Positions 4,982 to 62,050 of a DNA stretch of 64,000 nt are shown here, in pieces (the first letter of the stretch is position 1; the number at the start of each line of letters is the position of its first letter). The stretch is from positions 5,518 through 69,517 of the forward strand of contig CAYLNK010000001.1 of the NCBI GenBank assembly GCA_964384675.1, read 5' to 3'. The stretch comes from an uncultured Holophagales bacterium. GTDB taxonomy: Bacteria; Acidobacteriota; Thermoanaerobaculia; UBA5066. The translations under genes and the position numbers were made by a program. Under the pieces are notes generated by a model, which was not told the DNA's origin, searched no databases, and worked only from the letters and a program-made list of their open reading frames with translations.

Positions 4982-4988
4982 CCCGGGC

Positions 4989-10326: not shown

Positions 10327-10367
10327 TAATCCGCCGCCGGATGAGAGAGAAGAGGAAGGGTATGGGT

Positions 10368-11513
10368 ATGAAGCGTATCGTCGTTCTCGGCTCGGGCCTG
10401 GTCGGCTCCCTGATGGCGAAGGACCTCGCCGCGGACGAACGGTTCGAGGTCGTCGCGGTCGACCGGAGCGAGGAGGCGCTGGGGCGCCTGGAGGCGGCGC
10501 GCCTCCCGCGGCTCTCGACGCGGCTGGCGGACCTGGCGTCGCCGATCGAGATCACCAAGATCATCGCCGGCGCCGACGTCGTCGTCGGCGCCGTCCCGGG
10601 CTTCCTGGGGCACCGGATGCTCCGCACCGTGATCGAGGCCAAGAAGCCGGTGGCCGACATCTCGTTCGCTCCCGAGGACCCGTTCGCGCTGGAGGCGCTG
10701 GCGGTGCAGCACGGCGTTCCGGTCGTCGTGGACTGCGGAGTCTCACCCGGCCTCTCGAACCTGGCCGCGGGACGCGCGGCGGCCCTCATCGAGGACCTCG
10801 ACCGCGTCCAGATCCTGGTGGGCGGCCTGCCGTTTCGCCGGGTCTGGCCGTACGAGTACCGGATCGTCTTCTCGGCGACCGACGTGATCGAGGAATACAC
10901 CCGCCCCGCGCGCGTTATCACCGACGGCGTGATGGTGACCAGGCCGGCCCTCTCCGAGGTCGAGACGTTCGACTTCCCGGTCGTCGGGACGCTCGAGGGC
11001 TTCCTGTCGGACGGCCTGCGGACCGTGCTGACGACCGTCCGCGCGCGGAACCTCGAGGAGAAGACGCTGCGGTACCCGGGGCACGCGGACCGGATGCGGA
11101 TGCTGCGCGAGACCGGCTTCTTCGGCGAGGAGCCGGTGGACGTGCGCGGGCTGCCCGTCGTCCCGCGCGCCCTCACCGAGAAGCTCCTCTTCTCGGCCTG
11201 GAAGCTCCCGCAGGGGGAGGAGGAGTTCACGGTGCTGCGCGTCGTGTGCGAGGGCCGGGCCGACGGCGTGAGGGTGCGCCGCACCTACGAGCTCTTCGAC
11301 CGGACCGACGCCGCCACCGGCACCTCGATGGCGCGCACCACCGGCTACCCGTGCACCATCGCCACCCGGCTCCTCGCCGACGGCGCGATCGTGAAGCCGG
11401 GGATCCACCCGCCCGAGCTGATCGGCCGCAACCCGATCCTGTACGTGGCGATGACGGAGGGGCTGGCCGCCAAGGGTGTGACGTTCACCGAACGGGCCGA
11501 GGAGATCGTCTGA
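10368..11513 (+). CDS. Saccharopine dehydrogenase family protein (NAD(P)-binding).
   Basis: MKRIVVLGSGLVGSLMAKDL... Rossmann N-terminus plus saccharopine-DH C-terminal domain. ATG 10368 is preceded by AGAGGAAGGG about 8 nt upstream. In-frame ATGs at 10341/10362 are alternatives. The upstream part of track ORF 9036..11513 is out-of-context overlap with lhgO. Confidence 0.8.
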   Translation: MKRIVVLGSGLVGSLMAKDLAADERFEVVAVDRSEEALGRLEAARLPRLSTRLADLASPIEITKIIAGADVVVGAVPGFLGHRMLRTVIEAKKPVADISFAPEDPFALEALAVQHGVPVVVDCGVSPGLSNLAAGRAAALIEDLDRVQILVGGLPFRRVWPYEYRIVFSATDVIEEYTRPARVITDGVMVTRPALSEVETFDFPVVGTLEGFLSDGLRTVLTTVRARNLEEKTLRYPGHADRMRMLRETGFFGEEPVDVRGLPVVPRALTEKLLFSAWKLPQGEEEFTVLRVVCEGRADGVRVRRTYELFDRTDAATGTSMARTTGYPCTIATRLLADGAIVKPGIHPPELIGRNPILYVAMTEGLAAKGVTFTERAEEIV

Positions 11514-48492: not shown

Positions 48493-50141
48493 CGCCCCGC
48501 CTCGAAGACGACGCGCCCACCCACGACCGTCAGCTCGACCGGAGTCGTCAGGATCTTCCGCGGGTCGCTCGCCTCGGCGGCGAAGAGGTCGGCCCCGAAG
48601 ACCACCAGGTCGGCCAGCTTTCCTGGCTCGAGCGTCCCCTTCCGGTCCTCGGTCCCCTCCGCGTACGCGCTCCCCCGGGTGTAGAGGTCGAGGGCCTCCG
48701 CCAGCGTCAGCTTTTCCTCCGGCTTGAACCCTCCCTTCGGGCCGCCGCCGTCCGGCGCCTCGCGGGCCACGGCCGAGTAGAGGCCGCGCCGCGGGTCGAG
48801 CGGCTCGACCGACCAGTCGGTGCCGAAGGCGACGTGGATCCCCCTGGCGAGGAAGGCGCGCGCGTTGTAGGCGTCCTTCAGGCGCTCCTTGCCGATCCGC
48901 TTCTCGGCCCAGCGCATGTCGGTGGTGGCGTGCGTCGGCTGGATCGAGGCGATGACGCCCAGGTCGCGGTAGCGGTCGAGGTCCGCCGCGCGCACCACCT
49001 GCGCGTGCTCGATCCGGAAGCGCCGGTCGCGGCGCCCGTGCTTCGCGACGATCGCCGCGACGGCGTCGAGCACAAGCGCGTTGGCGCGGTCGCCGATGGC
49101 GTGGACGGCGAGCTGAAGTCCGTGGCGGTCGGCCTCCTCCACCATCCGGGAGAGCTCGGGGATCGGGGTGACGAAGAGGCCGGACGTCTTCGGGTCGTCG
49201 GCGTACGGCGCGAAGAACGCCGCGGTGCCGGCGCCCATCGAGCCGTCGGCGTACAGCTTCACGGCGCCGACGCGCACCCAGTCGTCGCCGAGCCCGGTGG
49301 AGACGCCCCCGGCGATCAGGGCCGGGAGCGTCTCGGCGGCGCGCCAGACGTTGATCCGCGCGGTCAGCTCGCCGGCCCGCGCCAGCTCGACGTAGGTCCG
49401 GAGGGCGTCGGCGTCGGAGGCGTCCTGCAGCGACGTGACGCCGAGCCGGGCGGCCTCCTTCAGGGCGCCCCGCACGGCGCGGAGGTTCTGCTCGTGGGTC
49501 GCGGGCGGGACGACCTTCGCCACCAGATCGATCGCGTTGTCCTTCAGGATTCCGGTCGGCTCGCCCGCGGCGTCCCTCACGATCGTGCCGCCTTCGGGAT
49601 CGGGCGTCGTGCGGTCGATCCGGGCGGCCGCGAGTGCCGCTCCGTTCGCGAGCGCCATGTGCCCGTCGACGCGGTCGACGAGGACCGGGTTGTGGGGTGT
49701 GACGCGGTCGAGAGACGCGCGAGCGGGCGGCCTCTTCGACGGCCACGTCTCGTGGTCCCAGCGCCCGCCCAGCACCCACTCGCCCTTCCTGAGCCCCTTC
49801 ACGTGCTCGCCCACGCGGCGGGCCATCTCCTCCTCGTCGCGCGAGCTCCGGAGGTCCACGGAGAGGAGTCCGTGCCCGCTGGAGAGGACGTGGGTGTGCG
49901 CGTCGTTGATCCCCGGGACGACGAGCCGCCCGGCGAGGGGGACGACGCGGGTGGTCTTGCCGATCCACGGGGCGACCTCGGCGTCGGAGCCGATCGCGAC
50001 GATGCGGCCGTCGGCGATGGCGACCGCGGTGGCGGCCGGAAGGCCCTTGCCGGGCCAGATCTTCCCGCCGGTGAGGACGAGCGTGGCCTCGCGGGGGAGG
50101 GCGAGGAGAGCCGGGAGGACGAGCGACAGGCCGATCACCAT
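48489..50141 (-). CDS. Secreted amidohydrolase-family protein (Amidohydro_3 / YtcJ-like).
   Basis: Signal peptide MVIGLSLVLPALLALP. Metal-binding motifs INDAHTHV, ...AVHAIGD..., FGTDWSVEP. 550 aa. Confidence 0.85.
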   Translation of the reverse strand: MVIGLSLVLPALLALPREATLVLTGGKIWPGKGLPAATAVAIADGRIVAIGSDAEVAPWIGKTTRVVPLAGRLVVPGINDAHTHVLSSGHGLLSVDLRSSRDEEEMARRVGEHVKGLRKGEWVLGGRWDHETWPSKRPPARASLDRVTPHNPVLVDRVDGHMALANGAALAAARIDRTTPDPEGGTIVRDAAGEPTGILKDNAIDLVAKVVPPATHEQNLRAVRGALKEAARLGVTSLQDASDADALRTYVELARAGELTARINVWRAAETLPALIAGGVSTGLGDDWVRVGAVKLYADGSMGAGTAAFFAPYADDPKTSGLFVTPIPELSRMVEEADRHGLQLAVHAIGDRANALVLDAVAAIVAKHGRRDRRFRIEHAQVVRAADLDRYRDLGVIASIQPTHATTDMRWAEKRIGKERLKDAYNARAFLARGIHVAFGTDWSVEPLDPRRGLYSAVAREAPDGGGPKGGFKPEEKLTLAEALDLYTRGSAYAEGTEDRKGTLEPGKLADLVVFGADLFAAEASDPRKILTTPVELTVVGGRVVFEAGR

Positions 50142-50216
50142 GCCGCGAGGTTACCTTCGACCGGGGCGGGAGCGGAGCCTGGATCACGACCTCGGGCCGG
50201 CGGCCTAAGATGGGAC

Positions 50217-53200
50217 GTGCGCGGTGCGGCGGCATTCCTGAGCGTCGGGCTCGCCCTGGCCGGCGCGGGGCGCGTCGCGGCGGCCGCCGGCGTCCTCCCT
50301 CCGGATCCGCGCTACGTTTTCGAGCACGTCGGCGAGGAGAAGGGCTTCGCGACGCGGACGGTGGTCTCCCTCTGCCAGGACCGCGAGGGGTTCCTCTGGG
50401 TCGGCACGCTGAACGGTCTCCATCGCTTCGACGGCGCGTCGTTCCAGCTGCTCTCCGGCCCGGGGGGCGTGCCCGAGACGGCCGTCTACTCCGTGCGAGA
50501 GGCGCCCGACGGCACGCTCTTCGTCTCGACCGGCGCGGGCCTCTACCAGCGCGCCCGTGGGCGGTTCGAGAAGGTGTCGCTCCCCGCGCAGGCGGATTCG
50601 CTGGAGGCCTTCGAGCCTTTCGCCTTCGACGGACGGGGGCGCCTCCTCGTGGCCACGTCGTCGGGCCTCCTCCGCCGCACGGACGGCGTCATCGAGCCGA
50701 TCGGCCCGCCCCTGCCGGTCTCGGCCGTTCACGCCTCGCCGGCGGGCGAGCTCTGGTGCGCGAGCGGCACACGGGCCTTCAGGCTGACGCCGACCGGTGC
50801 GGTCGCCCACGAGGTCTCCGGCCTCCCGGGAGACGCGGTCCGGTCGTTCGCGTCCGCTCCGGACGGTACCCTCTGGATCCGGACGGCCCGCCACCTCCTG
50901 CGGCGGGACGGGGATCGCTTCGTGCTCGACGACGACGGTCTGCCGGGCGGAAACGACTACGGCGGGCCGTTCGCCGACCGGTTCGGGGAGCTGTGGGTCC
51001 CGACCCCGGTCGGACTCTACCGCCGCGAGGCGGGGCGCTGGCGCCGGCTCGGACGCGCGCAGGGGATGGGAGCCAACGCCGTGATCGCCGTGACCGAGGA
51101 CCGCGAGGGAGCGCTCTGGATCGGTTTCGGCGGCGCGGGCCTCGACCGGTGGCCGGGACGGCGCCTCTGGTCGGCCTGGGGCGCCGAGGAAGGCCTTCCG
51201 AACGAGGTCGTCTGGGGGATGGTGCGCGACCCCGCGGGTCGGCTCCTCATCGCCACGAGCGACGGGCTCGCCATCGTCGATCCGGGGCGGCCCGGGATCC
51301 GTGTCGTGAACGAGAGAGACGGCCTGGCCGGCCGGACGGTGCGCCACCTCGCCGCCGCGTCGGACGGCTCCGTCTGGGCCCTCTCGGTGCCCGGAGGCCT
51401 CTCGCGAATCGATCCTTCGCGGGGGACCGCGCGCGCGATCCACGATCTCCCCGAGCCGCCCGTCAACGTCTCGGCGTCGCCCGACGGGACGCCGTACCTG
51501 GTGAGCCGGAACCACGTCTTTCGGCTCGGGGACCGTCTCCTCGAGCTGCCGTTCCCGTCCGGGCTCGAAGGGATGGCGGGCCGCCTGGTCGCGGCGAACG
51601 GCGGCGTCCTCTGGGAACGGAGCCGCTCGGGGCTCTTCCGCTTCGACGGGACGCGCTGGAGGCTCTTCACCGAAGCCGACGGCCTCCTCCCCGGCGCCGT
51701 CGACGAGGTGGGCGCGGTGACCGCGGACGAGGCCTGGGTTCGCTATCGCTCCTCACCGGCCATCTCCCGGGTGCGGCTCCGCGGAGGCGGGCTCGACGTC
51801 CGGCATTTCCGGCGATCCGACGGGCTCCTCGACACCGCGCCGTTCTTCATCGGCCGCGACGCGGGCGGGCGGGTCTTCCTCGGAGGCGAGAACGGGATCT
51901 CCGTCGTGGCGCCGGACGGACGGGTCCGGAGCCTCACCCGCGCGGACGGGCTGATCTGGAACGACTGCTCCGACGGGGCGTTCCTGGCGGAGCCGGACGG
52001 CAGCGTGCTCGTCGGCACCAGCCGGGGGCTCGCGCGGTACGACCCGACCGGAGGGGAGGAGCTTCCGGGGGCGCCCGCGGTGGCGTTGACCTCGGTCACG
52101 CTGGGCGGGCGGGAGGCGATCCCCGGAGGGGAGGTGCCGTGGAGCCGGCGCCTCCTGGTGGCCCGGTTCGCGGCGCTGACGTACCGCAGCCGCGGCGACG
52201 TGCGCTTCCGGTACCGGCTCTCGGGCCTCGAGTCCGAGGCGACCGAGACCGCGCTGCGGGAGGCGCGCTATCCGGCCCTGCCGGCCGGCACCTATCGGTT
52301 CGAGGTGTCGTGCCGCTCCGCCGCCGGGCTCTGGAGCGCACGTCCGGCCGCCTTCGATCTGACGATCCTGCCCCCGTGGTGGCAGACGTGGCCGTTCCGG
52401 CTCGGCGTCGCGGTCGTGGTCCTCGCGGCCGGCGCCGGGGCGGTCAAGCTGCGTGTGGCCCGCCTGGAGCGCCGTCAGGCGCAGCTCGAGGCGCAGGTGA
52501 CGGAGCGGACGCGCCTCCTGGACGAGCGGAATCGCGACCTTCAGCGGGCCAACCTGCGGCTCGGGGAAGCCCAGAAGCGGCTGGCGGACCTGCAGCTGAG
52601 CGCTCCCGACAGCCTCGGCAGCCTGGGCGACTGGGGGCGCCGGCTGGCCGGGGAGACCGCGCGGATGGCCGGGCTCGAGGCGCTCGACGTCTTCCGCCGC
52701 AACGGTGAGACGGTGACGCCGCTCTTCCCCACGACACGCCCGGTGCCGTCGGCGGACGAGCTGCGCGCCGCGGCGGGATTCGGCGGGGCCGCCCCGCGGG
52801 GGACCGGACTGGTTCCGGTCCTGGGTCCGACCGGAGAGCTGCACGGCGCTCTCGCGATCGACGGTTCGCTGGACCGTCTGGGCGACGTCGAGCGTCAGCT
52901 CCTCGAGACGCTGGCGCGCCACCTCGGGACGACCCTCGACATGGCGAGCCTGCGGCGCAGGCTACAGGACGCCCAGAACGAGAGGGAGGCGAGCCGGGTG
53001 GAGCTCCATCGCAGGGGGATCGACACGCTCCGCGAATGCCCTCGCTGCGGCCGCTGCTACGACCAGCGTCTCGAGCGGTGCGAAGCGGACGGCGCGGAGC
53101 TCGCGTCGACGCGGCTGCTGCCGCTCCGGCTCGGGGGCCGCTACCGGCTGCGCCGGCTCCTCGGCGAGGGCGGCATGGGAGCCGTCTTCCTGGCCGTCGA

Positions 53201-54038
53201 CGAAGCGACGGGCTTGCGACGGGCGGTCAAGATCGTGCGGGCCGAGCACCTCAACGACGTGGTCGTGAGGACGCGGTTCGAGCGCGAGGCGCAGCTGGTG
53301 GCGCGTATCGCTCACCCGGGCGTCGTGAGCCACGTCGACTCCGGCGAGCTGCCGGACGGCTCGAGGTTCCTCGTCATGGAGCTTCTCGAGGGCTTCGACC
53401 TGGGACGGATCCTCGAGGCTCGCGGTCCCGGCACCCCAGCCCAGGTGGCCGAGGTCCTGCGCCAGGCCGGTGCGGCCCTCCAGGCGGCGCACCTCCTCGG
53501 CGTCCTGCACCGCGACCTGAAGCCGTCGAACCTGTTCCTGCAGCCGCGCCCGGATGGCTTCGAGGTGAAGGTCGTCGACTTCGGCCTCGCCAAGTCGATG
53601 GGCGAGAAGAGCAAGGCCACCCAGACGGGCTTCGTGGTCGGGAGCCCGATGTACATGTCCCCCGAGCAGATCCGGGAGGAGAGCCTGGACGGACGCTCCG
53701 ATCTTTTCTCGCTCGCGTCGGTGGGCTACGAGCTCCTCACCGGCGTGGCCCCCTTCGAGGGTCCGAACGTCGCGGAGATCTTCACCCGCATCCTCCAGCA
53801 GGCGCCGGCATCGTTCACCAGGTACCTGCCCGGCTTCCCGCCCGACGTGGAGGCGGTCTACACCTCGGCCTTCGAGAAGAAGCCGGCGCGACGTCCCGCC
53901 GGGGTCGGAGCCTGGGTGGCGCGCGTGGTTCCGGCGCTGGAGGGCGTTCCGCCGACCGTGTCCGGCTGGCCGATCCCGGCGATTCGTGCCGAGGCGGCGG
54001 CGTTCGTGTCCGGGTTCGTTGCAGAATCCGCCGGATGA
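50217..54038 (+). CDS. Transmembrane sensor Ser/Thr protein kinase: signal peptide, two-component-regulator-propeller repeats, Y_Y_Y domain, TM, GAF-like domain, Cys4 zinc-ribbon-like motif, C-terminal Hanks-type kinase domain.
   Basis: GTG start with signal MRGAAAFLSVGLALAGAGRVAAAAG. Repeated G(L/I)xRFDG propeller motifs. Y_Y_Y: DVRFRYRLSGLES...GTYRFEV. TM: WPFRLGVAVVVLAAGAGAV. Zinc-ribbon-like CPRCGRCYDQRLERC. Kinase: LLGEGGMGAVFLAVD...AVKIV, HRDLKPSNLFL, DFGLAKS, GSPMYMSPEQ. Confidence 0.8.
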   Translation: MRGAAAFLSVGLALAGAGRVAAAAGVLPPDPRYVFEHVGEEKGFATRTVVSLCQDREGFLWVGTLNGLHRFDGASFQLLSGPGGVPETAVYSVREAPDGTLFVSTGAGLYQRARGRFEKVSLPAQADSLEAFEPFAFDGRGRLLVATSSGLLRRTDGVIEPIGPPLPVSAVHASPAGELWCASGTRAFRLTPTGAVAHEVSGLPGDAVRSFASAPDGTLWIRTARHLLRRDGDRFVLDDDGLPGGNDYGGPFADRFGELWVPTPVGLYRREAGRWRRLGRAQGMGANAVIAVTEDREGALWIGFGGAGLDRWPGRRLWSAWGAEEGLPNEVVWGMVRDPAGRLLIATSDGLAIVDPGRPGIRVVNERDGLAGRTVRHLAAASDGSVWALSVPGGLSRIDPSRGTARAIHDLPEPPVNVSASPDGTPYLVSRNHVFRLGDRLLELPFPSGLEGMAGRLVAANGGVLWERSRSGLFRFDGTRWRLFTEADGLLPGAVDEVGAVTADEAWVRYRSSPAISRVRLRGGGLDVRHFRRSDGLLDTAPFFIGRDAGGRVFLGGENGISVVAPDGRVRSLTRADGLIWNDCSDGAFLAEPDGSVLVGTSRGLARYDPTGGEELPGAPAVALTSVTLGGREAIPGGEVPWSRRLLVARFAALTYRSRGDVRFRYRLSGLESEATETALREARYPALPAGTYRFEVSCRSAAGLWSARPAAFDLTILPPWWQTWPFRLGVAVVVLAAGAGAVKLRVARLERRQAQLEAQVTERTRLLDERNRDLQRANLRLGEAQKRLADLQLSAPDSLGSLGDWGRRLAGETARMAGLEALDVFRRNGETVTPLFPTTRPVPSADELRAAAGFGGAAPRGTGLVPVLGPTGELHGALAIDGSLDRLGDVERQLLETLARHLGTTLDMASLRRRLQDAQNEREASRVELHRRGIDTLRECPRCGRCYDQRLERCEADGAELASTRLLPLRLGGRYRLRRLLGEGGMGAVFLAVDEATGLRRAVKIVRAEHLNDVVVRTRFEREAQLVARIAHPGVVSHVDSGELPDGSRFLVMELLEGFDLGRILEARGPGTPAQVAEVLRQAGAALQAAHLLGVLHRDLKPSNLFLQPRPDGFEVKVVDFGLAKSMGEKSKATQTGFVVGSPMYMSPEQIREESLDGRSDLFSLASVGYELLTGVAPFEGPNVAEIFTRILQQAPASFTRYLPGFPPDVEAVYTSAFEKKPARRPAGVGAWVARVVPALEGVPPTVSGWPIPAIRAEAAAFVSGFVAESAG

Positions 54039-55171
54039 CACGGGCCCCCCGGGTGCTGTTCGCGACGATGAGCGCGCCGTCCGCCGAGGGCCAGGGCGGG
54101 CATCACCGTTCGTACCAGATCGTGCACGACCTCGGGGCGCTGGTAGGACCCGGACGGGTGACCACCCTCTGTCTCTCTGAGGAACGGGGGCCAGCCACCG
54201 GCGCGCAGAGGCTCTCCTGGAAGAGGAGGCGGCTCTCGGACCTCGTGAGGAACCGGCGACGGGTCCGGGGCGGGTCCGACTACTCGCCTCGGGCCTACGT
54301 GCAGGAGGCCGGTCTCGAGGAGTACAGGCGCGCGCTCGACCCGGAGCGGCCGGACGTCTGCCTCACCGATCACTCCGGGATCGCCGCCGGACTCCTGCCC
54401 ATGAACGAGCGCGCCGGGATCCCGACGGTGATCCTCCCGCAGAACATCGAGTCGCTCGACTGGGTCCGGCCCGGCCGGCTGGCCACGGCGATCGCCGACC
54501 TCGGTGACGAGCTGTCGATCCTCTCCGCGTGCGTCGCGCGGCTCTGCATCTCCCGCGTGGAGGCCGGGTTCCTCGGCGGACTCGGCCTGCCGTCGCGCTA
54601 CTACCCGTACCGGCCCGTCGCCGACCTGGAGTCCACGCTGCTCGGGATCCGGGCCGAACGGGCGGTGCGCCGTGAGCCGGGCTTGCTCCTCCTCCTCGGC
54701 TCGGCGGTTCACCGCACCACGGGCGAAGCGTTCGCGTGGCTGCTCCGCGGGATCCGGGAGCACGGCCTGCCGCCGGGGGTGACGCTCCTGGTGGCGGGCA
54801 AGTCGACGGAGTCGCTGCTCCCCCGGGGAGAAAGCGTGCCCGGGGTGGAGGTGCTGGGCACCGTCACGCCGGCGGCGCTTCGAGGGGTGCTCACTCGTGC
54901 GGCCGCGGTACTGGTCCCGCAGCGCCGGGGATTCGGCGCGCTCACCCGGCTCTCCGAGATGTCGTGCGCGGGGATCCCGTATGCGGTTTCGGAGCATGCC
55001 TGCCTGGCGCTCGACCTTCCGCCGGGCGCCACACCCGTCGGCGACGACGTGGCCGAGTGGCTGGCCGTCATGGGGGAGATGGCGCGGGGAGAGGACACAC
55101 CGCTGCCCGAGTATGTCGCCTGGCGGGACCGTCAGCGCGGCCTGCCGGGCGACGTCTTCCGGCCTTCCTGA
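54035..55171 (+). CDS. Putative GT-B glycosyltransferase (group-1/GT4-like, divergent), translationally coupled to the sensor kinase gene.
   Basis: ATG 54035 overlaps the upstream stop (ATGA). N-terminus VLFATMSAPSAEGQGGHH is like the GT4 Gly-rich start. C-terminus ...RRGFGALTRLSEMSCAGIPYAVSE resembles the E-x7-E/GFG motif region. The upstream part of track ORF 53036.. is rejected. Confidence 0.5.
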   Translation: MTRAPRVLFATMSAPSAEGQGGHHRSYQIVHDLGALVGPGRVTTLCLSEERGPATGAQRLSWKRRRLSDLVRNRRRVRGGSDYSPRAYVQEAGLEEYRRALDPERPDVCLTDHSGIAAGLLPMNERAGIPTVILPQNIESLDWVRPGRLATAIADLGDELSILSACVARLCISRVEAGFLGGLGLPSRYYPYRPVADLESTLLGIRAERAVRREPGLLLLLGSAVHRTTGEAFAWLLRGIREHGLPPGVTLLVAGKSTESLLPRGESVPGVEVLGTVTPAALRGVLTRAAAVLVPQRRGFGALTRLSEMSCAGIPYAVSEHACLALDLPPGATPVGDDVAEWLAVMGEMARGEDTPLPEYVAWRDRQRGLPGDVFRPS

Positions 55172-57633
55172 TCGTCGTCGTCCACGCGGGGGGAGACGAA
55201 CGCCGCGTTGACGGGGGCGGGCATCACCGAGCCGGCGCCGCGCACGCTCTTCCAGATCGCCTCGTTCAGCGGGATATCCGGCGCGGCGTCCTCGCGCGTC
55301 AGGTCCCACGAGCCCGACTCGGCCTGCATCGGCGCACCCTCCTCGTTCCTCTCGTAGAGCGGAAGGGTGGCCGGGCGGTGGCGGTACGGCGTGAGGTCCG
55401 GCGTGTCCCGGAAGGCGTTGGACATCGGCGTCGCCGACGCGTCGTGCTGCGACAGGGGGGGAAGTCCGAGGATCAGCTCGATCGTGCGCAGGACCGAGGT
55501 GGTCGAGTAGAGCGTGGAGTCGACGGCGCCGCCCCGCCGCGTGTAGGGCGAGACGACGAGCGCGATCGACCGGTGGGCGTCGACGTGGTCGGACCCGTTC
55601 TGGGCATCGTCCTCCACCACGAAGACGGCGGTCTCTTTCCAGAACGGCGTCGCCGAGAGGGCCTCGACGAGGCGGCCGAGCGCCAGGTCGTTGTCGGCCA
55701 CCATGGCCCGCGGCGTCAGCGCCCCCCGCTTCGTGCCCGCGGTGTGGTCGTTCCCGAGCCGCACGATCGAGAGGCGCGGCAGCTCCCCCTTCGCCACGTA
55801 GTCCCGCAGCTCCTTCAGCCAGAGGTCCACGCGGGCGTTGTCGGTGATGTCGAGGTCGAAGCCGGGGTAGAAGGGACAGGTCACGCCTTTCAGGACTCTG
55901 CCTTTCCCCTCGACCAGACCGCCGGGGGCCGGGGCCTCGGGACCCTGCTCGGGCGCGACCCCGACGAACTCCCCGTAGTTGCGGATCGAGAGGCCCGCGC
56001 GCGCGGCGGCATCCCAGAGATAGCCCGCGGTGGGCGCCGGAGCGTCGTCGTCGCCCTCGAACCAGTACGCGAAGCCGTTCCCGGCGTAGAGCGGGGGCCA
56101 CACCTTCTCGGTGAGGTCGGTGGCGTAGGCCGCCGTCGACCAGTTGTGCCCGTCGGCCGAGACCTCGGCGTCACAGTAGAAATCGTCGAGGAGGACGAAC
56201 TCGTCGACGAGGGCGTGCGCGTTCGGGGTGACGTCCTTCCCGAAGATCGTGATCGACGGGTCGCCGTTGCCGCGGGGGACGTCGCCCAGGACCTGGTCGT
56301 ACGTCCGGTTCTCACGGATGACGTAGACGACGTGGCGGATCGGCGTCGGCTCGCCCGGGAGCGACGGGATCACGCGCGAGGGACGCGCCGGGGAGGCGCC
56401 GCGCGCCGCCGGCTTCCGGTTCCGGTAGGCGCGCACGGTCAGGGCCGCGAGCTCGCGCGTGGACGGGACCGGGATGCGCGAGAGGCTGCCGGGCAGGTGC
56501 CGGATGTCGCCTTCCGGGTGCGCGCCCCGCGATCCCAGGTCGGGACCGGTGGCGCGGTTCTGCATCGAGCCGCTCCCCTTGGCGTTGGCCGCGTAGAGGG
56601 TCCGGCCGTCCGGCGCGAGCGCCAGCGCCGACGGGTACCAGCCGGACGGGATGAAACCGGTCGCGCGCGCGGCGACGGGCCCCTTCGAGAGGTCGACCAC
56701 GGCGATGGCGTCGTCGTCCGCGTTGGCGACGTAGAGCGTCCGCCCGTCCGGCGAGAGGGCGAGCGCGTTCGGCGTGGATCCGTCGGGGAGCGTGTCCGCC
56801 GACGGGGTCCCCGGTCCGTCGGGACCCATCGCCACCGAGATCTGCCGCACGACCCGGGGGCGCGCGAGGTCGATCGCGGCCACCCAGTTGCGGTTCGCCT
56901 CGGCGACGTAGAGCGTCGCGCCGTCGGGGGAGAAGACGAGGTCGCACGGGTGATCGGCGGTGGGGACCGTCGCGACGACGCGGCCCTCGGCCGCGTCGAC
57001 GAGGCTGACCGTCGCCCCGGCCCAGCTCGAGACCGCCACCAGCCGTCCGTCCGGCGACAGCACCGGACGGTACGGGAACCGCCCCACCGGGATTCCGGGT
57101 CCGACGGCGCCGGTCGCGAGATCGACCCGTACGAGGTCGTTCCGGAGGATCCGGGCCACCCAGAGCGAGCGTCCATCGGCCGTGACCGCGAGCCCGGAAG
57201 GGATCGATTCCTCGGCCGGCCGCCCGCCGCTCACGTCGATCGGGGTCTCCGGGACCAGCCGGTCGTCCTCGATGCGGAAGACCAGCACGTCGCCGCCCTT
57301 GGCCCCCGAGAGGAACGCCCGTGCGCCGTCCGGAGTGACGGCGAGCCCGAGCCAGGAGCGCATCGCCGGCGCGACGTGAAGCACGCGCCCGGACGTCGTG
57401 TCGAGGAGCTGGAGGCGCTGGTCGTCCGAGCCGGTGGACGCGACCAGGAGACGCTTGCCGCCCGGCACGACGGCGACGGCGAACGGCGAGGTCGCGACCG
57501 GTGTCTGGGCGCCGGTCGGCGTGAGGGTCCGGCCGTTGGGGAGGGGGATCTCCAGAGGGCGCGGGGCGAGCGGGCGCTGGGCGGCGGCGAGGCAATCGGC
57601 GAGGAGGAGCGCGAGCGGCAGCAGGCGGCGCAT
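55132..57633 (-). CDS. Secreted bifunctional-type protein: YncE/YVTN seven-bladed beta-propeller fused to a phosphoesterase-family (phospholipase C / AcpA acid phosphatase-like) domain.
   Basis: Signal MRRLLPLALLLADCLAAA. Repeated ..SPDG(R)TLYVA.. blades. C-terminus IRENRTYDQVLGD...LGNDHTAG...VVEDDAQNGSDHVDAHR is typical of PF04185 phosphoesterases. Its 3' end converges on the upstream gene with a 40-nt overlap. Confidence 0.8.
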   Translation of the reverse strand: MRRLLPLALLLADCLAAAQRPLAPRPLEIPLPNGRTLTPTGAQTPVATSPFAVAVVPGGKRLLVASTGSDDQRLQLLDTTSGRVLHVAPAMRSWLGLAVTPDGARAFLSGAKGGDVLVFRIEDDRLVPETPIDVSGGRPAEESIPSGLAVTADGRSLWVARILRNDLVRVDLATGAVGPGIPVGRFPYRPVLSPDGRLVAVSSWAGATVSLVDAAEGRVVATVPTADHPCDLVFSPDGATLYVAEANRNWVAAIDLARPRVVRQISVAMGPDGPGTPSADTLPDGSTPNALALSPDGRTLYVANADDDAIAVVDLSKGPVAARATGFIPSGWYPSALALAPDGRTLYAANAKGSGSMQNRATGPDLGSRGAHPEGDIRHLPGSLSRIPVPSTRELAALTVRAYRNRKPAARGASPARPSRVIPSLPGEPTPIRHVVYVIRENRTYDQVLGDVPRGNGDPSITIFGKDVTPNAHALVDEFVLLDDFYCDAEVSADGHNWSTAAYATDLTEKVWPPLYAGNGFAYWFEGDDDAPAPTAGYLWDAAARAGLSIRNYGEFVGVAPEQGPEAPAPGGLVEGKGRVLKGVTCPFYPGFDLDITDNARVDLWLKELRDYVAKGELPRLSIVRLGNDHTAGTKRGALTPRAMVADNDLALGRLVEALSATPFWKETAVFVVEDDAQNGSDHVDAHRSIALVVSPYTRRGGAVDSTLYSTTSVLRTIELILGLPPLSQHDASATPMSNAFRDTPDLTPYRHRPATLPLYERNEEGAPMQAESGSWDLTREDAAPDIPLNEAIWKSVRGAGSVMPAPVNAAFVSPRVDDDDQEGRKTSPGRPR

Positions 57634-57710
57634 CGACCCGGAGATTACTGCCCGCGCGCCGGATCCCGGTTTCGGGCGACAATCGCGCGGCCACTCATGG
57701 AGGGCAACCG

Positions 57711-60098
57711 ATGACACGCCCCTCGAGCAACCGGTCGATCCTCGTCCGCTCCGCGTGCGCCGCGACGGCTCTCGTCCTGCTCACGCTCGGCGCGGCTGCC
57801 GCGCCGGCGGCGCTGATCGTGAACGTCGTGGCGAGCCCGACGAACGTCCCGATCGGGCAGCCGGTGGCGTTCTCGGCCACCGTGACGGGCGGGGTCTCGC
57901 CGTTCCTGTACACCTGGAACTTCGCGGACGGAGGGAGCGCCAGCGGGGCGCTCACCGTCCACACGTTCGCGTCGGCCGGTCCGTTCAACGTCAAGTGCAC
58001 GGTGCGCGATTCCAGCCAGCCCGCGCAGATCGCGACGGGCAGCGTCACGGTGCGCGTCTCCAAGCCGCCGGACCCGATCGACTTCCAGGTGAAGGACACG
58101 GCAACGGGGGCGCTCCTTTCGTACTCGGAGGCGACGGGCTGGCGCGCCGTCGTCGGGGAGAACCTGACGTTCGTGCCGGTTCCGGCCGTCTCGACGCCCC
58201 TCTGGAGCTTCGGTGACGGCTCCAATTCGTTCGAGTCGCAGCCGGTCCACGCGTTCGAGAAGGCGGGCTCCTACACCGTCACCCTCACCGGGAGCGGGCA
58301 GACGAAGAGCGCCCTGGTCCTGGTGGAGACGCAGGCGGGTCCGCCCCTGACCGGCGCCTTCACCTACCGCTATGTCGACGGAGGCACCGTGGACCGGAAC
58401 GCCGTCGTGGCCGGGCGCTCGGTGCGCTTCTCGGCCTCCGATCCGGCGGACACCTATCTCTGGAGCTTCGGCGACGGCGGCGCGGCGGGCGCCCGCGAGG
58501 TCGACCACGCCTTCGGGGTGCCCGGGCTCTACACGACGAGCCTCGCGGTCACGCGTGGCGGCTCGCCTTCGGCGGCGAGCAGCGTCACCTTCGTGGTCGT
58601 GGGGCCGGGCGTGGTCACCGACACGTGGGTCCTCCCGGGTGTCGCGTTCAGCGACGGGCTGAACGGCGCCCTCTGGCAGTCCGACGTGACGCTGTTCAAC
58701 CCGAGCCCGACGCAGCCGATGACGGTGAGCCTGGCGTTCGCCGACGCCCGGCAGCCGCTCGCCGACCCGTCGCAGCTCGTCTACTTCCCCATCGTCGTCG
58801 ACCGGCAGCGGAGCGTGCGGTTCGTCAACGTCCTCACCGGCTACCCGTTCTACGCGTCGAAGGGAAGCTACGGCGCGCTTTTCCTGCGGGTGGCGAACGC
58901 CGACCAGTCCCCGGTCGTCACGGCCCGGACCTACAACACCGGTGACGGCAGCGGCACGTACGGCCTCGCCGTCCCGTCGCTCCCGGTCACGTCCGGCATC
59001 TCGGCGTCGAGCCCTCGCGCGGCGCGCACGCTGCTCGGGCTGAAGGAGAACGCCTCGGCGTACACGAACCTGGCCGTGGTCAACCTGGGCGGGGACCCGG
59101 CCGTCGCCGACGTGGCCTTGCTGGACCCGGCGGGCAGCCCCCTCGGCGTCCCGGTGCGCTTCGCGCTCGGACCGTACGGCGTGGCCCAGGTCGGACGGAT
59201 CCTGGCGGCCGCCGGCGTGACCGCCTCGGCCGACACCTTCGTCGCCGTCGTCACGCTCGTGTCCGGGACCTCGGTCGTGCCGTACGCCAGCGTCATCGAC
59301 GTCCTCTCGAAGGACCCGATCGTCGTCAATCCGGTGTCGACCCCCGCCTCCTCGTACCGCCTGCCGGGCATCGTGAGGACTCGCGGCCAGGGGAGCACCT
59401 TCTTCCGGAGCGACTTCTATCTTCACAACCCGTCCACCCAGATCCGGAAGCTGAACGTGTCGTACTCGTACCGCTCCGGTGACGGACCGCGCTTCGTCGC
59501 CTCGAACGTGCTGATCCTCCAGCCGCTGCAGACGATCGAGCTCGACGATTTCGTGAAGGAATGGCTCAAGCTCCCGCCCTCCGACACGGCCAGCTACGTC
59601 GACGCCTTCGTGGACGTCACCCCGGCGGCCGGAGATCCCGCCGGGGAGGCGGTGCTCGTCCTCGGCAAGACGTACAACTCGCAGCCGACCGGCTCGACGG
59701 GTCTCCAGGTCCCCGGGTACACCGCTGCCGACGCCGCTTCGGCGGCCGGCCCCGCCCGGCGCCTCCTGATGACCGGGCTGCAATCGACCGCGGCGTACCG
59801 CACGAACCTGGCGTTCTTCCTGGCCTATCCCGGAGCGACCGGCAGCGTCAGCGCGATGCTGCGGCTCTACGACGGATCGGGCGCGCTGGTGAGATCGCTT
59901 CCGATCACCCTCGACGACTTCACCAGCTTCGTCCAGAAGGGGGACTCCGAGCTGTTCGGCGGTCTCAGCGGCGACCGGACGCGGATCACGGCGGTCCTGG
60001 AGGACCCCACGGGCAGCGCTCCGGTCGCCGCATACGCCACCGTGCTCGACCAGGTCTCGGGGGACGCGGTCCTCGTCGTGGGCAAGCCGCAACCGTGA
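57711..60098 (+). CDS. Secreted protein with three PKD domains followed by two copies of the uncharacterised ~235-aa domain.
   Basis: Signal MTRPSSNRSILVRSACAATALVLLTLGAAAA. PKD: YTWNFADGGSASG, LWSFGDGSNSF, LWSFGDGGAAG. C-terminal repeats at nt ~58620-59336 and 59337-60095 share motifs with the genes at 6521 and 20092. Confidence 0.8.
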   Translation: MTRPSSNRSILVRSACAATALVLLTLGAAAAPAALIVNVVASPTNVPIGQPVAFSATVTGGVSPFLYTWNFADGGSASGALTVHTFASAGPFNVKCTVRDSSQPAQIATGSVTVRVSKPPDPIDFQVKDTATGALLSYSEATGWRAVVGENLTFVPVPAVSTPLWSFGDGSNSFESQPVHAFEKAGSYTVTLTGSGQTKSALVLVETQAGPPLTGAFTYRYVDGGTVDRNAVVAGRSVRFSASDPADTYLWSFGDGGAAGAREVDHAFGVPGLYTTSLAVTRGGSPSAASSVTFVVVGPGVVTDTWVLPGVAFSDGLNGALWQSDVTLFNPSPTQPMTVSLAFADARQPLADPSQLVYFPIVVDRQRSVRFVNVLTGYPFYASKGSYGALFLRVANADQSPVVTARTYNTGDGSGTYGLAVPSLPVTSGISASSPRAARTLLGLKENASAYTNLAVVNLGGDPAVADVALLDPAGSPLGVPVRFALGPYGVAQVGRILAAAGVTASADTFVAVVTLVSGTSVVPYASVIDVLSKDPIVVNPVSTPASSYRLPGIVRTRGQGSTFFRSDFYLHNPSTQIRKLNVSYSYRSGDGPRFVASNVLILQPLQTIELDDFVKEWLKLPPSDTASYVDAFVDVTPAAGDPAGEAVLVLGKTYNSQPTGSTGLQVPGYTAADAASAAGPARRLLMTGLQSTAAYRTNLAFFLAYPGATGSVSAMLRLYDGSGALVRSLPITLDDFTSFVQKGDSELFGGLSGDRTRITAVLEDPTGSAPVAAYATVLDQVSGDAVLVVGKPQP

Positions 60099-60142: not shown

Positions 60143-62050
60143 ATGAGCAGCACGCGGCTCGGCCGATACGCCCTCAAGAAACGCCTCGGATCGGGCGGCA
60201 TGGCCGAGGTCTGGGAGGCGTTCGACGAGACGCTCCACCGCACCGTCGCGGTGAAGGTGATCCGTCCCGCCATCTCGGGCGCGCCGGAGTTCGTGGAGCG
60301 GTTCCTCCGCGAGGCCCGGGTCGTCGCGAACCTGGAGCACCCGAACATCGTCCCCGTCTACGACTTCGGCAACGAGGGGGAGACCGCGTACCTCGTCATG
60401 CCGCTGGTCCCGGGCGGGACGCTGAAGGACCGGATGCGGGGTCCGATGGACCCGGCCTCGGCTCTGGACGCCATCGCCGCGATCGCCGCCGCCCTCGACC
60501 ACGCGCACGGCAAGTCGGTGCTTCACCGGGACGTCAAGCCGACGAACGTCCTGGTGGACCAGATCGGACGGCTGGTGCTCGCCGACTTCGGCCTGGCCAA
60601 GAGCACGATGGTCAGCTCCGAGCTGACCTCGACCGGGATGGTCGTCGGCACACCGGTCTACATGTCGCCCGAGCAGGCGCTCGGGCAGCAGGTGGATGGC
60701 CGCTCCGACCAGTACGCTCTCGCCGTTCTCGCCTTCGAGCTCCTGACCGGCCGGATCCCGTACGTCGCCGCGACGCCGATCGCGTTCCTCCAGCAGCACC
60801 TCCACGCGCCGCCCCCGGCCGCCACGTCGGTCAACAAGGCCCTTCCGCCCGCCGTGGACGCCGCGCTCGCGCGCGGCCTGGCCAAGCGCCCCGAGGAGCG
60901 CTACGACAGCTGCACGGCGCTCGCGGCGGCCATCGGCGAGGCGCTCGGAATCACGCTGGCGACGGCGCGCTGGCGGCCGACGGCCGGAGGCGGCCGACTG
61001 GCGTCCAGCTCCGTGCCCGCCCCGGCAACGCCGACTCCCGAGTCCGAGTCCGCGACGATCGTCCACCCGTCGTCGGGCCGCGTCTCACGTGCGTCGGCCA
61101 GCGGGGCCGCCACCCGGGCGACGGGGCAGACGTCGCCGACTCCGCCCCCCGTCACGCCGCCTCCGCTGCCGCGGGCCGTCCGTGGACCGATACCCTCGCC
61201 GCCACCCGAGCCGGTGGCCGAGCTCCCACGGTCCGGGACGATGCCGGCGCCCGCGCTTCCCTCCGAGTCCCGGCGGATGTCGATCCTGCCGCTCTTCCTG
61301 GTCCTCGCCGCCGTCGGGGCTCTGATCGGCTACCAGATCTACTCCGGCCGGAAGCCGGCCGGGCCCGTGGAGACCCCGGTCGCCACGCCGGTGCCCGCCT
61401 CGACCGTGCCGCCGGGAGCCCCGATCGTCCCCCTGGCGACCCCGGTCCCGACCGCCGTGCCGACGGTCGAGCCGACCGTGCCGCCGATCACGATCCGGGA
61501 GGTCGGGGCGACACCGGTCCCGGGCGAGCCCGAGCCGACACGGCCACCGCGAGCGCACCCCACGGCGCCTCCGCCCACGGAGCGCCCGCCGGAAGATCGC
61601 CCCCGGGGCGGGGCAACCCCGGTCGCCGAGGACCGGCGAGGGCCGTTGCGAAAAGGGGAGAAGCGCACCGGCGAAGCCACGGTCCCGTTCCGGCCCGGCG
61701 AGCGTGTCCCGGTTGGCGCGAAGATCGGGGACGCCACGATCCTCTGGGTCGAGGTGAAGGACATGCCGGACGACTCCGACTACCGGAAGGCGGAGAAGGA
61801 CCCGGAGCGGACCCACAAGATCACCGTCACCTTCACGTACGCCAACGCGGACGACGAGCACGACTACAAGTGCGACTACGGCGTGTCCCTTCTGGACGGC
61901 GCAGGGCGTGAGGTCGGCGCGGGCCAGCAGGATCGCTCCCTCAACAAGGGGGAGCGGAGCGACACCAACCGGATGTCGGTGAAGGGGCGCACCGCCGATT
62001 TCAAGTCGGTGCGGTCGATGCGCCTGAGGTTCCGGATGGAGGCGGACTAG
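60143..62050 (+). CDS. Hanks-type Ser/Thr protein kinase: N-terminal kinase domain, Pro-rich linker, single TM, extracytoplasmic C-terminal domain of unknown function.
   Basis: LGSGGMAEVWEAFD...AVKVI, HRDVKPTNVLV, DFGLAKS, GTPVYMSPEQ. TM ILPLFLVLAAVGALIGYQIY, then a Pro/Thr/Val-rich region and a ~150-aa C-terminal domain. Confidence 0.9.
   Translation: MSSTRLGRYALKKRLGSGGMAEVWEAFDETLHRTVAVKVIRPAISGAPEFVERFLREARVVANLEHPNIVPVYDFGNEGETAYLVMPLVPGGTLKDRMRGPMDPASALDAIAAIAAALDHAHGKSVLHRDVKPTNVLVDQIGRLVLADFGLAKSTMVSSELTSTGMVVGTPVYMSPEQALGQQVDGRSDQYALAVLAFELLTGRIPYVAATPIAFLQQHLHAPPPAATSVNKALPPAVDAALARGLAKRPEERYDSCTALAAAIGEALGITLATARWRPTAGGGRLASSSVPAPATPTPESESATIVHPSSGRVSRASASGAATRATGQTSPTPPPVTPPPLPRAVRGPIPSPPPEPVAELPRSGTMPAPALPSESRRMSILPLFLVLAAVGALIGYQIYSGRKPAGPVETPVATPVPASTVPPGAPIVPLATPVPTAVPTVEPTVPPITIREVGATPVPGEPEPTRPPRAHPTAPPPTERPPEDRPRGGATPVAEDRRGPLRKGEKRTGEATVPFRPGERVPVGAKIGDATILWVEVKDMPDDSDYRKAEKDPERTHKITVTFTYANADDEHDYKCDYGVSLLDGAGREVGAGQQDRSLNKGERSDTNRMSVKGRTADFKSVRSMRLRFRMEAD

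Follow-up and report, generated by a model that had tools for sequence, protein, structure and literature searches.

The locus described here raises two questions: whether a Reg_prop/Y_Y_Y sensor is genuinely joined, within one polypeptide, to a C-terminal Ser/Thr kinase, and whether that kinase and the glycosyltransferase encoded immediately downstream form a functional unit. An earlier note had proposed both. The predicted protein runs, in order, from a signal peptide through a double Reg_prop propeller, a Y_Y_Y domain, one TM helix, a helical linker, a GAF-like fold, a 43-residue helix and a Cys motif to a Hanks kinase; the features are collected in Table 1, with coordinates in the window (the whole stretch of 64,000 nucleotides that was analysed).

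Table 1. Features of the receptor kinase locus, with window coordinates and the basis of each assignment
Feature	Position	Strand	Basis
Receptor Ser/Thr kinase gene, 1273 aa, GTG start, TGA stop	50217..54038	+	Open frame, translation, GC3 ~0.9
N-terminal signal peptide or anchor, residues 1-27, MRGAAAFLSVGLALAGAGRVAAAAG	50217..50297	+	Hydropathy peak at residues 4-24; basic residue, hydrophobic run, Ala-rich end
Periplasmic double beta-propeller, Reg_prop repeats, residues about 30-650	50304..52166	+	Pfam Reg_prop; phmmer to solved HTCS sensors
Y_Y_Y (Ig-like) membrane-proximal domain, residues 656-718	52182..52370	+	Pfam PF07495; aligns with C-terminal part of 4A2L
Single TM helix, residues 721-747, WWQTWPFRLGVAVVVLAAGAGAVKLRV, then basic cytoplasmic stretch	52377..52457	+	Strongest hydropathy peak of the protein, residues 725-749
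Charged helical juxtamembrane linker, residues 746-792	52452..52592	+	Sequence; alignable in all orthologues
Reduced GAF-like domain, residues about 795-890	52599..52886	+	AF2 (pLDDT ~90 there); Foldseek PDB
Long continuous helix, ~43 residues, 888-930, from GAF-like domain to putative zinc ribbon	52878..53006	+	DSSP helix, model positions 96-138
Putative zinc ribbon, C941-x2-C944-G-R-C947-x7-C955-x2-D958	53037..53090	+	Conservation; modelled as short beta hairpins
Hanks-type kinase domain, residues 976-1240	53142..53936	+	Pfam Pkinase, solved relatives, alignment
ATGA overlap, next gene's start codon over the kinase stop codon	54035..54038	+	Sequence
378-aa GT-B fold protein, GT4-like, no Pfam model for the family	54035..55171	+	GC3 0.89, AF2, Foldseek

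One gene for sensor, adaptor and kinase

Sensor, adaptor and kinase are encoded by one real, uninterrupted gene. The frame is open on the + strand from the GTG at 50217 to the TGA at 54036-54038, the third-position GC stays between 0.86 and 0.96 in the windows that start between 50250 and 53700, which cover the main part of the gene, and the frame of highest third-position GC passes to that of the downstream gene at about 53850-54000. It follows from this continuity and the late switch that the gene contains no frameshift, the event that the earlier note had named as able to separate the propeller and Y_Y_Y from the kinase; the pattern is unbroken from the one to the other. A JGI gene call on an identical contig (L008) agrees, giving the same 1273-aa (P0001) and 378-aa products.

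The sensor and its membrane anchor

The ectodomain is a sensor of the HTCS type, as had been proposed. In Pfam, the Reg_prop repeats score 78.8 bits (cut-off 20.4) and Y_Y_Y (PF07495) 37.3 bits (cut-off 26.6), and phmmer aligns the region to the solved Bacteroides sensors, with E-values of 3.5e-27 for 4A2L (the periplasmic domain of BT4663), 5.2e-25 for 3V9F and 5.5e-19 for 3OTT/3VA6. In BT4663 (4A2L/4A2M) and BT4673 (3OTT/3VA6), the homologous sensor likewise comprises two Reg_prop propellers and a Y_Y_Y domain, beyond which one TM helix connects it with a signalling enzyme in the cytoplasm. There the likeness ends: in the present receptor a GAF-like/zinc-ribbon adaptor leads to a Hanks Ser/Thr kinase as the output, and its host belongs to the Acidobacteriota rather than the Bacteroidota. 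Moreover, Pfam finds no HisKA, HATPase_c, REC or AraC-type HTH domain in the receptor at E<=0.1, and it is, therefore, not a member of the HTCS class. The closest ectodomains overall (P0007-P0092, 33-42% identical across roughly the N-terminal 60% of the chain) are those of Reg_prop/Y_Y_Y diguanylate cyclases and histidine kinases from Acidobacteriota, Myxococcota and Proteobacteria, whose own outputs are GGDEF, with or without EAL, or HisKA-HATPase-REC, where the receptor has the kinase cassette instead.

Hydropathy peaks solely at residues 4-24 and 725-749, and basic residues follow the TM helix; the sensor of ~690 residues that lies between the signal peptide and the TM helix is thus predicted to be extracytoplasmic, and we infer that the signal peptide is cleaved. 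The motif PPWWQTWPF is kept among the aligned receptor orthologues. Beyond the membrane, the charged juxtamembrane linker probably forms a coiled coil.

The adaptor and the kinase

The linker leads into a segment for which the earlier note had suggested a GAF domain, an assignment that probably holds at the level of the fold, although not at that of the Pfam gathering score: GAF_2 reaches 19.6 bits, under the cut-off of 28.6, and matches over profile positions 74-136 only. The AF2 model of residues 795-975, built from seven sequences, has a pLDDT of 82.5, and the best 50 PDB matches that Foldseek returns for it are almost all GAF domains, including those of PDE6, PDE2A, PelD, phytochromes, DevS and KdpD (E 4.6e-4 to 2e-2, TM 0.4-0.55). 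On the basis of this seven-sequence model and these modest E-values, we describe the segment as a reduced, GAF-like fold of ~95 residues.

A cysteine motif (CPRCGRCYDQRLERC, residues 941-955, 53037-53081) does indeed precede the kinase, but its spacing is not the C-x2-C-x9-C first proposed; it reads C-x2-C-x2-C-x7-C, followed by x2-D, and could be viewed as CPRCG plus C-x2-D-G with one extra Cys. Translated in all six frames, the window contains this motif only once; it is unchanged in seven orthologues and conserved to 90% or more across 150 proteins with the cassette. No Pfam family matches this region of the receptor, and we regard the Cys4/Asp motif as a putative metal-binding zinc ribbon. 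It resembles, by description only, the site in Mycobacterium tuberculosis PknG, where a rubredoxin domain adjoins the kinase; PknG is a soluble protein in which two CxxCG knuckles form a rubredoxin fold, whereas the motif of the receptor is C-x2-C-G-R-C-x7-C-x2-D and follows a GAF-like domain.

The output domain is a Hanks kinase with a full set of catalytic residues, and it is predicted from them to be active. Pkinase (PF00069) scores 143.4 bits over residues 976-1199 (cut-off 31.7), and the domain contains a G-loop (983-990), the VAIK-type Lys1005, the alpha-C Glu1024, HRDLKPSN (1098-1105), DFG (1121-1123) and an APE-like SPE (1148-1150). Among eight aligned sequences G983-G988, K1005, E1024, H1098-N1105, D1121-F-G and P1149-E1150 are all invariant, so that the HRD (1098-1100) and DFG motifs previously picked out by eye are joined by every other catalytic residue. 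The closest solved kinases are PknB, PknA, PknE and StkP (E 5e-50); in common with these, the domain is an RD kinase and belongs to a membrane protein with an extracytoplasmic sensor. The activation loop carries a conserved T-x-T (TQT at 1135-1137) as in PknB, where it contains the phosphosites. The topology, however, is inverted relative to these proteins, with the sensor first and the kinase last, and PASTA domains are absent: the NCBIfam PknB_PASTA model (NF033483) reaches 250.2 bits where 450 is required, matches the kinase part only and finds no PASTA repeats. In bacterial receptor Ser/Thr kinases, the kinase almost always comes first and the sensor last. That a C-terminal kinase is unusual, as the earlier note had remarked, is borne out by a 2025 atlas of bacterial Ser/Thr kinases, in which a TM segment lies N-terminal to the kinase in only one of 42 families.

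Distribution and reuse of the output cassette

The same architecture does occur in other genomes: the full receptor is present in 14 GTDB species genomes, all of them Acidobacteriota (Thermoanaerobaculia, 'Holophagales'), and in six metagenome clusters. All of the genomes that carry it are metagenome-assembled genomes (MAGs) of uncultured organisms.

The part of the protein that follows the membrane is far more widespread. A profile of the linker retrieved 541 clusters (at 50% identity), 103 of them at E<=1e-30, and in nearly all of the best 150 of the 541 the kinase follows the linker directly. As judged from these sequences, the helical linker, GAF-like domain, long helix, putative zinc ribbon and PknB-like RD kinase constitute a conserved, widely reused output cassette, in which ribbon and kinase stand a fixed ~20 residues apart. 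Its inputs include propellers, REC, GAF, PAS, dCache_1-HAMP, 7TMR-DISM, HisKA_7TM-PAS, CHASE2, VUPS and TPR, with REC receivers accounting for 28 of the 66 scanned. Fusion to so many other inputs of the two-component type indicates that the cassette is a general adaptor, by which sensor modules are connected with Ser/Thr phosphorylation. This reuse formed no part of the earlier reading of the locus.

Receptor Ser/Thr kinases with the sensor outside and the kinase at the C-terminus are a known kind, of which the propeller version is a new variant; a propeller receptor of this topology was not found described in the searchable literature. Whether the cassette as a whole defines a large and hitherto undescribed family is, in our judgement, an evenly balanced matter: on that reading, the cassette, mainly acidobacterial, would mark receptors of eukaryote-like topology (sensor first, kinase last) and would have replaced the histidine kinase or GGDEF output behind at least 10 kinds of two-component input, including REC, such that His-Asp phosphorelays would feed directly into Ser/Thr phosphorylation, and the gene in the window would be the propeller-input member. 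The proteins with the cassette indicate that two-component sensors (propellers, Cache-HAMP, 7TMR-DISM, PAS and REC) can be connected to Ser/Thr phosphorylation via one conserved adaptor, and they offer a defined system in which to study the switching of a Hanks kinase by signals from across the membrane or from REC; the Cys motif beside the kinase is a candidate metal- or redox-sensitive control point. In the Acidobacteriota, a major phylum of soils that has received little study, these proteins are likely to join two-component signalling directly to Ser/Thr signalling.

Proposed mechanism and alternative explanations

Taken together, the protein is likely to be a receptor Ser/Thr kinase of type-I topology, in which an exported sensor acts through one TM helix on a conserved adaptor-kinase cassette, with the glycosyltransferase as a recent neighbour; the signalling steps themselves we infer. 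The receptor would work as a dimer. A ligand bound outside the cytoplasm, for which the analogy with BT4663 makes a glycan the likeliest candidate, would alter the spacing of the membrane-proximal ends of the Y_Y_Y domains. This change would cross the membrane by way of the TM helices and travel along the coiled coil to the unit of GAF-like domain, long helix and zinc ribbon, which may set how the two kinase domains are placed relative to each other. These could then trans-autophosphorylate on the T-x-T of the activation loop (1135/1137), and the active kinase would phosphorylate cytoplasmic substrates. For BT4663 itself, signalling of a scissor type has been described (Lowe et al. 2012, cited in PMC8534201).

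Two alternatives concern the identity of the gene. With a GC content of 72%, the window is rich in long spurious ORFs: those at 50210-52708 and 53036-55171 (frame 2), together with the upstream part of that at 48834-54038, were rejected as high-GC shadow ORFs. The long frame might similarly be a shadow, or else an assembly chimera of a sensor gene and a kinase gene, were it not that the codon-position GC pattern is unbroken over the entire gene, that the order sensor-linker-kinase is repeated in independent assemblies (20 loci), and that about 48 cassette clusters of at least 1150 aa stand among the 149 other clusters listed; the probability of an artefact is, accordingly, negligible. It is also very improbable that the kinase serves in anti-phage defence, as do those of the PD-T4-6, MADS or PglW kind. 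The PADLOC PD-T4-6 models, which carry no listed cut-offs, score up to 256 bits, and mad6 and PglW match too; in NCBIfam, the models for MAD6 and PglW likewise give matches. Every such match, however, is confined to the generic kinase domain (~970-1250), the NCBIfam scores fall far short of their cut-offs (MAD6, 121 bits versus 460; PglW, 66 versus 990), and the NCBIfam PknB model scores as well. Moreover, the protein is a receptor with a periplasmic sensor, and its gene neighbours are of a housekeeping nature (amidohydrolase, NUDIX and acyl-CoA ligase) and have no PADLOC matches.

A further alternative accepts the receptor but places the main sensor in the cytoplasm: the GAF-like/zinc-ribbon unit would respond to a small molecule, redox state or metal, and the N-terminal modules would only localize or modulate the kinase. 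The constancy of the cassette behind varied inputs and the invariant Cys cluster immediately ahead of the kinase are in keeping with this; small-ligand binding is common among GAF domains, and in M. tuberculosis the kinase PknG is regulated through the Cys4 metal site of the rubredoxin domain adjoining its kinase. We nevertheless consider it unlikely, since a GAF-like domain trimmed to ~95 residues leaves little room for a canonical pocket, and since the inputs are classical signal-receiving modules, REC and Cache-HAMP included, which argues that signals enter upstream and that the cassette transmits them.

The predicted downstream glycosyltransferase

The receptor with its exported sensor is followed by a gene whose start lies inside the kinase stop codon, just as had been reported, and whose product was thought to be a divergent GT-B glycosyltransferase. 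Its assignment depends on structure prediction: the 378-aa protein has no Pfam family at E<=0.1, no NCBIfam match and no sequence match in the PDB, and Glycos_transf_1 or Glyco_trans_1_4 is recognized by Pfam in just two of 67 homologue clusters. The AF2 model (pLDDT 91.8, pTM 0.90) gives 286 PDB matches at E<=1e-3 in Foldseek, headed by MshA, GlgM, PglA, WbnH, PimA and BshA (E ~1e-9), and confidently predicts a glycosyltransferase with the two-Rossmann-domain GT-B fold of the GT4 type, as in the retaining enzymes MshA, PimA, BshA, PglA and WbnH. It seems to differ from these in the EX7E motif, of which the first Glu is replaced while hhalign places the invariant E308 on the second Glu of a GT4 enzyme (at a probability of only 19%), and the protein has an invariant set of its own (G21, R25, Q28, E159, S173, E176 and R209).

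The ATGA overlap was taken by the earlier note to imply obligate co-expression and a kinase-regulated glycosylation step. The former is retained for this genus-level lineage only, where the two genes are, as the overlap indicates, co-transcribed and probably translationally coupled; a general link is not, and nor is the glycosylation module. The glycosyltransferase gene follows the kinase gene only in the window (and the identical L008), L003 and L023, the last two of which share the overlap and encode kinases and glycosyltransferases 86-88% identical to those of the window. It is missing beside the receptor at the 18 other loci (L001, L002, L004, L005 and all 14 GTDB genome loci), and a comparison of 20 loci turned up no gene family that is repeatedly found next to the receptor. 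The three more distant homologues of the 378-aa protein that were examined all lie inside polysaccharide clusters, with GT2, GT4 and sulfotransferase genes, and in the flanks shown no called gene has a kinase Pfam family. The glycosyltransferase gene, from a family of polysaccharide synthesis, is a recent arrival beside the kinase gene and not a conserved partner. That the receptor kinase phosphorylates and controls its product, so making a glycosylation step answer to a signal from the envelope or from glycans, seems decidedly unlikely in the light of this distribution, the more so as stop-start overlaps are common in operons. In its favour are the retention of the 4-bp overlap in three related contigs, which leaves room for a functional link that may be specific to this lineage, the credibility of the GT-B enzyme as modelled, and the binding of glycans by Bacteroides sensors of the same type, given which a loop with glycans as both input and output would be plausible. 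In its own right, the 378-aa protein marks a GT-B family that lies beyond present Pfam coverage.

Gene structure of the receptor kinase

The reading frame of the receptor kinase runs uninterrupted from a GTG at window position 50217 to a TGA at 54036-54038, and its GC3 stays at 0.86-0.96 in 300-nt windows starting at positions 50250-53700; around 53850-54000, the highest-GC3 frame shifts to that of the next gene, which encodes a 378-aa protein, starts at an ATG at 54035 within ...GGATGA... and ends at 55171. As GC3 is steady up to this switch, the sensor part runs into the kinase part without a frameshift. For an identical metagenome contig, JGI calls these two genes as well, with products of 1273 and 378 aa and an overlap of 4 bp; together with the continuity of GC3, this places sensor and kinase in one gene, as the earlier note had it, rather than in two split by a frameshift.

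The window has a GC content of 72% and contains many long spurious ORFs. Shadow ORFs due to this composition occupy 48834-54038, 50210-52708 and 53036-55171, and a mechanical ORF list includes ORFs of 1734 and 711 aa that are longer than the true genes, the real starts being at 50217 and 54035. A consensus scan of 49900-55500 for promoters and terminators returned no promoters and one antisense terminator-like site, which is at chance level. At its 3'-end, the 378-aa gene overlaps a convergent propeller-phosphoesterase gene (55132-57717, minus strand) by 40 bp (55132-55171), and this overlap is likewise present in loci L003 and L008, the latter being identical to the window.

Domain organization

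By every sequence test, the predicted product is a Hanks kinase equipped with a Reg_prop/Y_Y_Y sensor (see table). In the hydropathy profile, residues 4-24 and 725-749 are the sole hydrophobic stretches, and KLRVARLERR comes after the second; the topology that follows is a signal peptide, ~690 residues in the periplasm, a single TM helix and a tail in the cytoplasm. The ectodomain is homologous to solved sensors of the Bacteroides hybrid two-component systems (HTCS), namely, 4A2L/BT4663 (E 3.5e-27), 3V9F (5e-25) and 3OTT/3VA6 (5.5e-19). The kinase domain is nearest to PknB, PknA, PknE and StkP (E 5e-50). In the activation loop, T1135 alone of the T-x-T motif is invariant: two of the eight aligned sequences have Ser or His in place of the second Thr.

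Sequence features of the 1273-aa receptor kinase
Feature	Residues	Evidence or remark
Reg_prop repeats	ectodomain	Pfam 78.8 bits, cut-off 20.4
Y_Y_Y	656-718	Pfam 37.3 bits, cut-off 26.6
GAF_2	846-908	Pfam, sub-threshold match
Pkinase	976-1199	Pfam 143.4 bits, cut-off 31.7
Kinase elements	G-loop 983-990, K1005, E1024, HRDLKPSN 1098-1105, DFG 1121-1123, SPE 1148-1150	every catalytic element kept
Activation-loop T-Q-T	1135-1137	

Within the linker between the TM helix and the kinase, residues 795-975 were modelled with AF2 (mean pLDDT 82.5, ~90 across the globular part). In the model, a small domain of alpha/beta type is followed by a helix of 43 residues, with short hairpins where a Cys motif lies. 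The best Foldseek matches of the model in the PDB, with a top E of 4.6e-4, are almost all GAF domains (PDE6, PDE2A, PelD, phytochromes, DevS and KdpD), so the GAF assignment is probably right at fold level, for a reduced domain. The motif itself, C941-x2-C944-G-R-C947-x7-C955-x2-D958, comprises a CPxCG knuckle and a C-x2-D-G knuckle with one additional Cys.

Most of what the earlier note had read from the sequence is borne out by these analyses: the Pfam matches for the Reg_prop and Y_Y_Y ectodomain and for the C-terminal Hanks kinase all exceed their cut-offs, the catalytic elements of the kinase are complete and invariant in all eight aligned sequences, and the Cys4 motif between the GAF domain and the kinase is present and unchanged across seven orthologues, with a spacing other than the C-x2-C-x9-C given there. 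The GAF domain of the note is likely at the level of the fold; the Pfam match to GAF_2 is below threshold.

A reusable output cassette

A profile of the GAF-like and putative zinc-ribbon segment, searched against 1.84 billion cluster representatives, matched 541 proteins at E<=1e-3, 103 of them at E<=1e-30. Among the 150 of these 541 that were listed and aligned (P0001, identical to the receptor, and 149 others), the kinase domain directly follows the linker in nearly all complete proteins, and conservation is 90% or more at all four Cys, at the Asp and, where the kinase joins, at L962, P969, R975 and Y976. About 48 of the 149 have at least 1150 aa, the size range of the propeller receptors. 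A Pfam scan of 66 shorter, non-propeller proteins found a Response_reg receiver in 28, at the N-terminal start (e.g. P0190, P0200, P0215 and P0219); these are response regulators with a Hanks Ser/Thr kinase as output. GAF inputs were found in eight of the 66 and 7TMR-DISM inputs in five, with one case each of HisKA_7TM plus two PAS, dCache_1 plus HAMP, CHASE2, VUPS and TPR. Among the clusters looked up, few bear an organism name; one is Holophagaceae and one a 'Deltaproteobacteria' MAG. The cassette of GAF-like domain, putative zinc ribbon and kinase is a reusable output unit, interchangeable between inputs; since it stands behind so many of them, it is the unit that matters, and in the window gene its input is the propeller.

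Distribution of the receptor

The complete domain order recurs in the full-length relatives P0001, P0002 (86% identity), P0003-P0006 (47-50%; among them a Thermoanaerobaculia MAG protein that NCBI names 'protein kinase') and P0015 (34%). The next-best ectodomain relatives end in GGDEF or HisKA-HATPase-REC outputs; the kinase cassette therefore occupies the usual place of these modules. When one genome per GTDB species was scanned for the same architecture, as the earlier note had suggested, 14 receptor loci were found, all in Acidobacteriota MAGs (labelled Thermoanaerobaculia, Thermoanaerobaculales, 'Holophagales' or Acidobacteria). By tblastn, 13 of them keep the order sensor, linker, kinase; in the other, L022, the N-terminal part is unmatched.

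In L016 (Acidobacteriota MAG contig), two linker-kinase copies (4585-6042 and 6844-8301) lie 2.2 kb apart with identical tblastn statistics, the result of tandem duplication or of a repeat in the assembly. In L012 (Thermoanaerobaculia MAG), the receptor kinase has a second propeller-type sensor gene (9194-11299, minus strand) within a few kb, suggesting local expansion of Reg_prop sensors.

The adjacent, predicted glycosyltransferase

The 378-aa protein has no Pfam, NCBIfam or PADLOC match, and the profile of its family has none among PDB sequences at E<=1. The family consists of ~67 clusters, mostly unannotated, with a GT1-type Pfam match in two; because its members include P0152 and P0154, from MAGs labelled Hodarchaeota (Asgard archaea) and Kiritimatiellae, this Pfam-less GT-B family is phylogenetically broad, yet it is without a curated model. 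The AF2 model of the protein is confident (pLDDT 91.8, pTM 0.90) and resembles the GT4-type GT-B enzymes MshA, GlgM, PglA, WbnH, PimA and BshA (E about 1e-9). In an hhalign comparison with a bona fide GT4 enzyme, which has a probability of just 19%, the invariant E308 falls on the second Glu of EX7E, and the first Glu is missing. All three homologues examined (41-47% identity) lie within polysaccharide-synthesis clusters, with GT2, GT4, WbsX and sulfotransferase neighbours. Given the fold model and these clusters, 'divergent GT-B glycosyltransferase', as the gene was initially described, is sound.

Only the window/L008, L003 and L023 have the glycosyltransferase gene 3' of the kinase with the same ATGA overlap. 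Its products in L003 and L023 share 87-88% identity with that of the window, and the kinases of L003 and the window share 86%. Where kinase identity is ~50%, the amidohydrolase on the upstream side may remain syntenic (L001), and the gene downstream of the receptor is FdhD in L001, NUDIX in L002 and TauE in L004. No glycosyltransferase homologue was found within the flanks of L005 or of any of the 14 genome loci. Clustering of neighbouring ORFs from 20 loci gave no recurrent partner gene (FHA, PP2C or regulator), the single apparent recurrent cluster being antisense shadow ORFs within the kinase gene. The other neighbours in the window (amidohydrolase, NUDIX hydrolase, acyl-CoA ligase, propeller-phosphoesterase and PKD protein) do not suggest a pathway.

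Thus, the overlap, which the earlier note took to imply obligate co-expression, is confirmed and points to co-transcription within a single genus-level clade, where translation is probably coupled too; with the glycosyltransferase absent at other receptor loci and no recurrent partner, it does not amount to a conserved kinase-glycosyltransferase system. The further proposal of a possible kinase-regulated glycosylation step finds no support in these loci.

Proposed mechanism and alternatives

A sensor homologous to those of HTCS lies outside the membrane and a complete RD kinase inside, with a single TM helix and the conserved adaptor as the connection. The receptor would act as a dimer, in which binding of a ligand to the propellers (probably a glycan, by analogy with BT4663) changes how far apart the Y_Y_Y ends lie; the BT4663 sensor closes like scissor blades upon ligand binding (Lowe et al. 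2012, as cited in PMC8534201). The change would be relayed via the TM helices, a coiled coil, the GAF-like domains and the long helices, and the putative zinc ribbon, fixed 20 residues ahead of the first kinase strand, would position the N-lobes. PknB trans-autophosphorylates its T-x-T loop; the receptor kinases presumably do likewise and would next act on their substrates.

We regard this overall picture of sensor, adaptor and dimer mechanism as probable. It is unlikely that the adaptor is itself the main sensor of redox state, metal or ligand, and slightly less likely still that there is a specific regulatory link from kinase to glycosyltransferase, to which the overlapping genes might point and against which their confinement to one clade argues. 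A defence kinase, a reading rejected on NCBIfam and PADLOC evidence, is highly improbable. The same applies to the long ORF being an artefact: a frameshift or an assembly chimera of sensor and kinase was rejected on the continuous GC3 and on the recurrence of the sensor-linker-kinase order at other loci.

Relation to known systems

The receptor belongs to neither HTCS nor PknB-type receptors, though it would work like them: it differs from the former in having no HK, REC or HTH domains, and from the latter in having no PASTA repeats and scoring under the PknB equivalog cut-off. In a 2025 atlas of ~300,000 bacterial STKs, only one of 42 families typically has a TM segment on the N-terminal side of the kinase, and Acidobacteria, GAF, zinc and propellers are unmentioned; Galperin's 2005 census covers neither propellers nor kinase topology. 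Literature searches on propeller-kinase and zinc-ribbon/GAF-kinase architectures found no description, and the public database names of these sequences are generic ('protein kinase', 'ligand-binding sensor domain-containing protein'). The sensor-kinase combination, and above all the GAF-like/zinc-ribbon adaptor common to REC-, Cache-, PAS- and 7TMR-type inputs, appears undescribed. In bacterial signalling, modular exchange of outputs is to be expected; what would interest specialists is that the topology is inverted, that the adaptor is conserved and that REC is fused to a Ser/Thr kinase.

Other genes in the window

A second Hanks kinase (60143-62050, plus strand) has the ordinary layout with an N-terminal kinase, and its 3'-end overlaps by ~50 bp a convergent GAF-PAS-HisKA-HATPase-REC hybrid histidine kinase (62001-63902, minus strand). 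A sucrose-phosphate-synthase-like GT4 fused to a sucrose-6F-phosphate phosphohydrolase (13574-15745, plus strand) is directly followed, with an overlap, by a full sucrose synthase with SUS_N, EPBD and GT-B_Sucrose_synth (15730-18135, plus strand), the two forming a sucrose synthesis/cleavage pair. Additionally, the window encodes a giant 2204-aa protein with CARDB, PKD and TIG domains (20092-26706, plus strand) and further surface-type proteins with He_PIG and PKD (97-1233 and 57711-60098).
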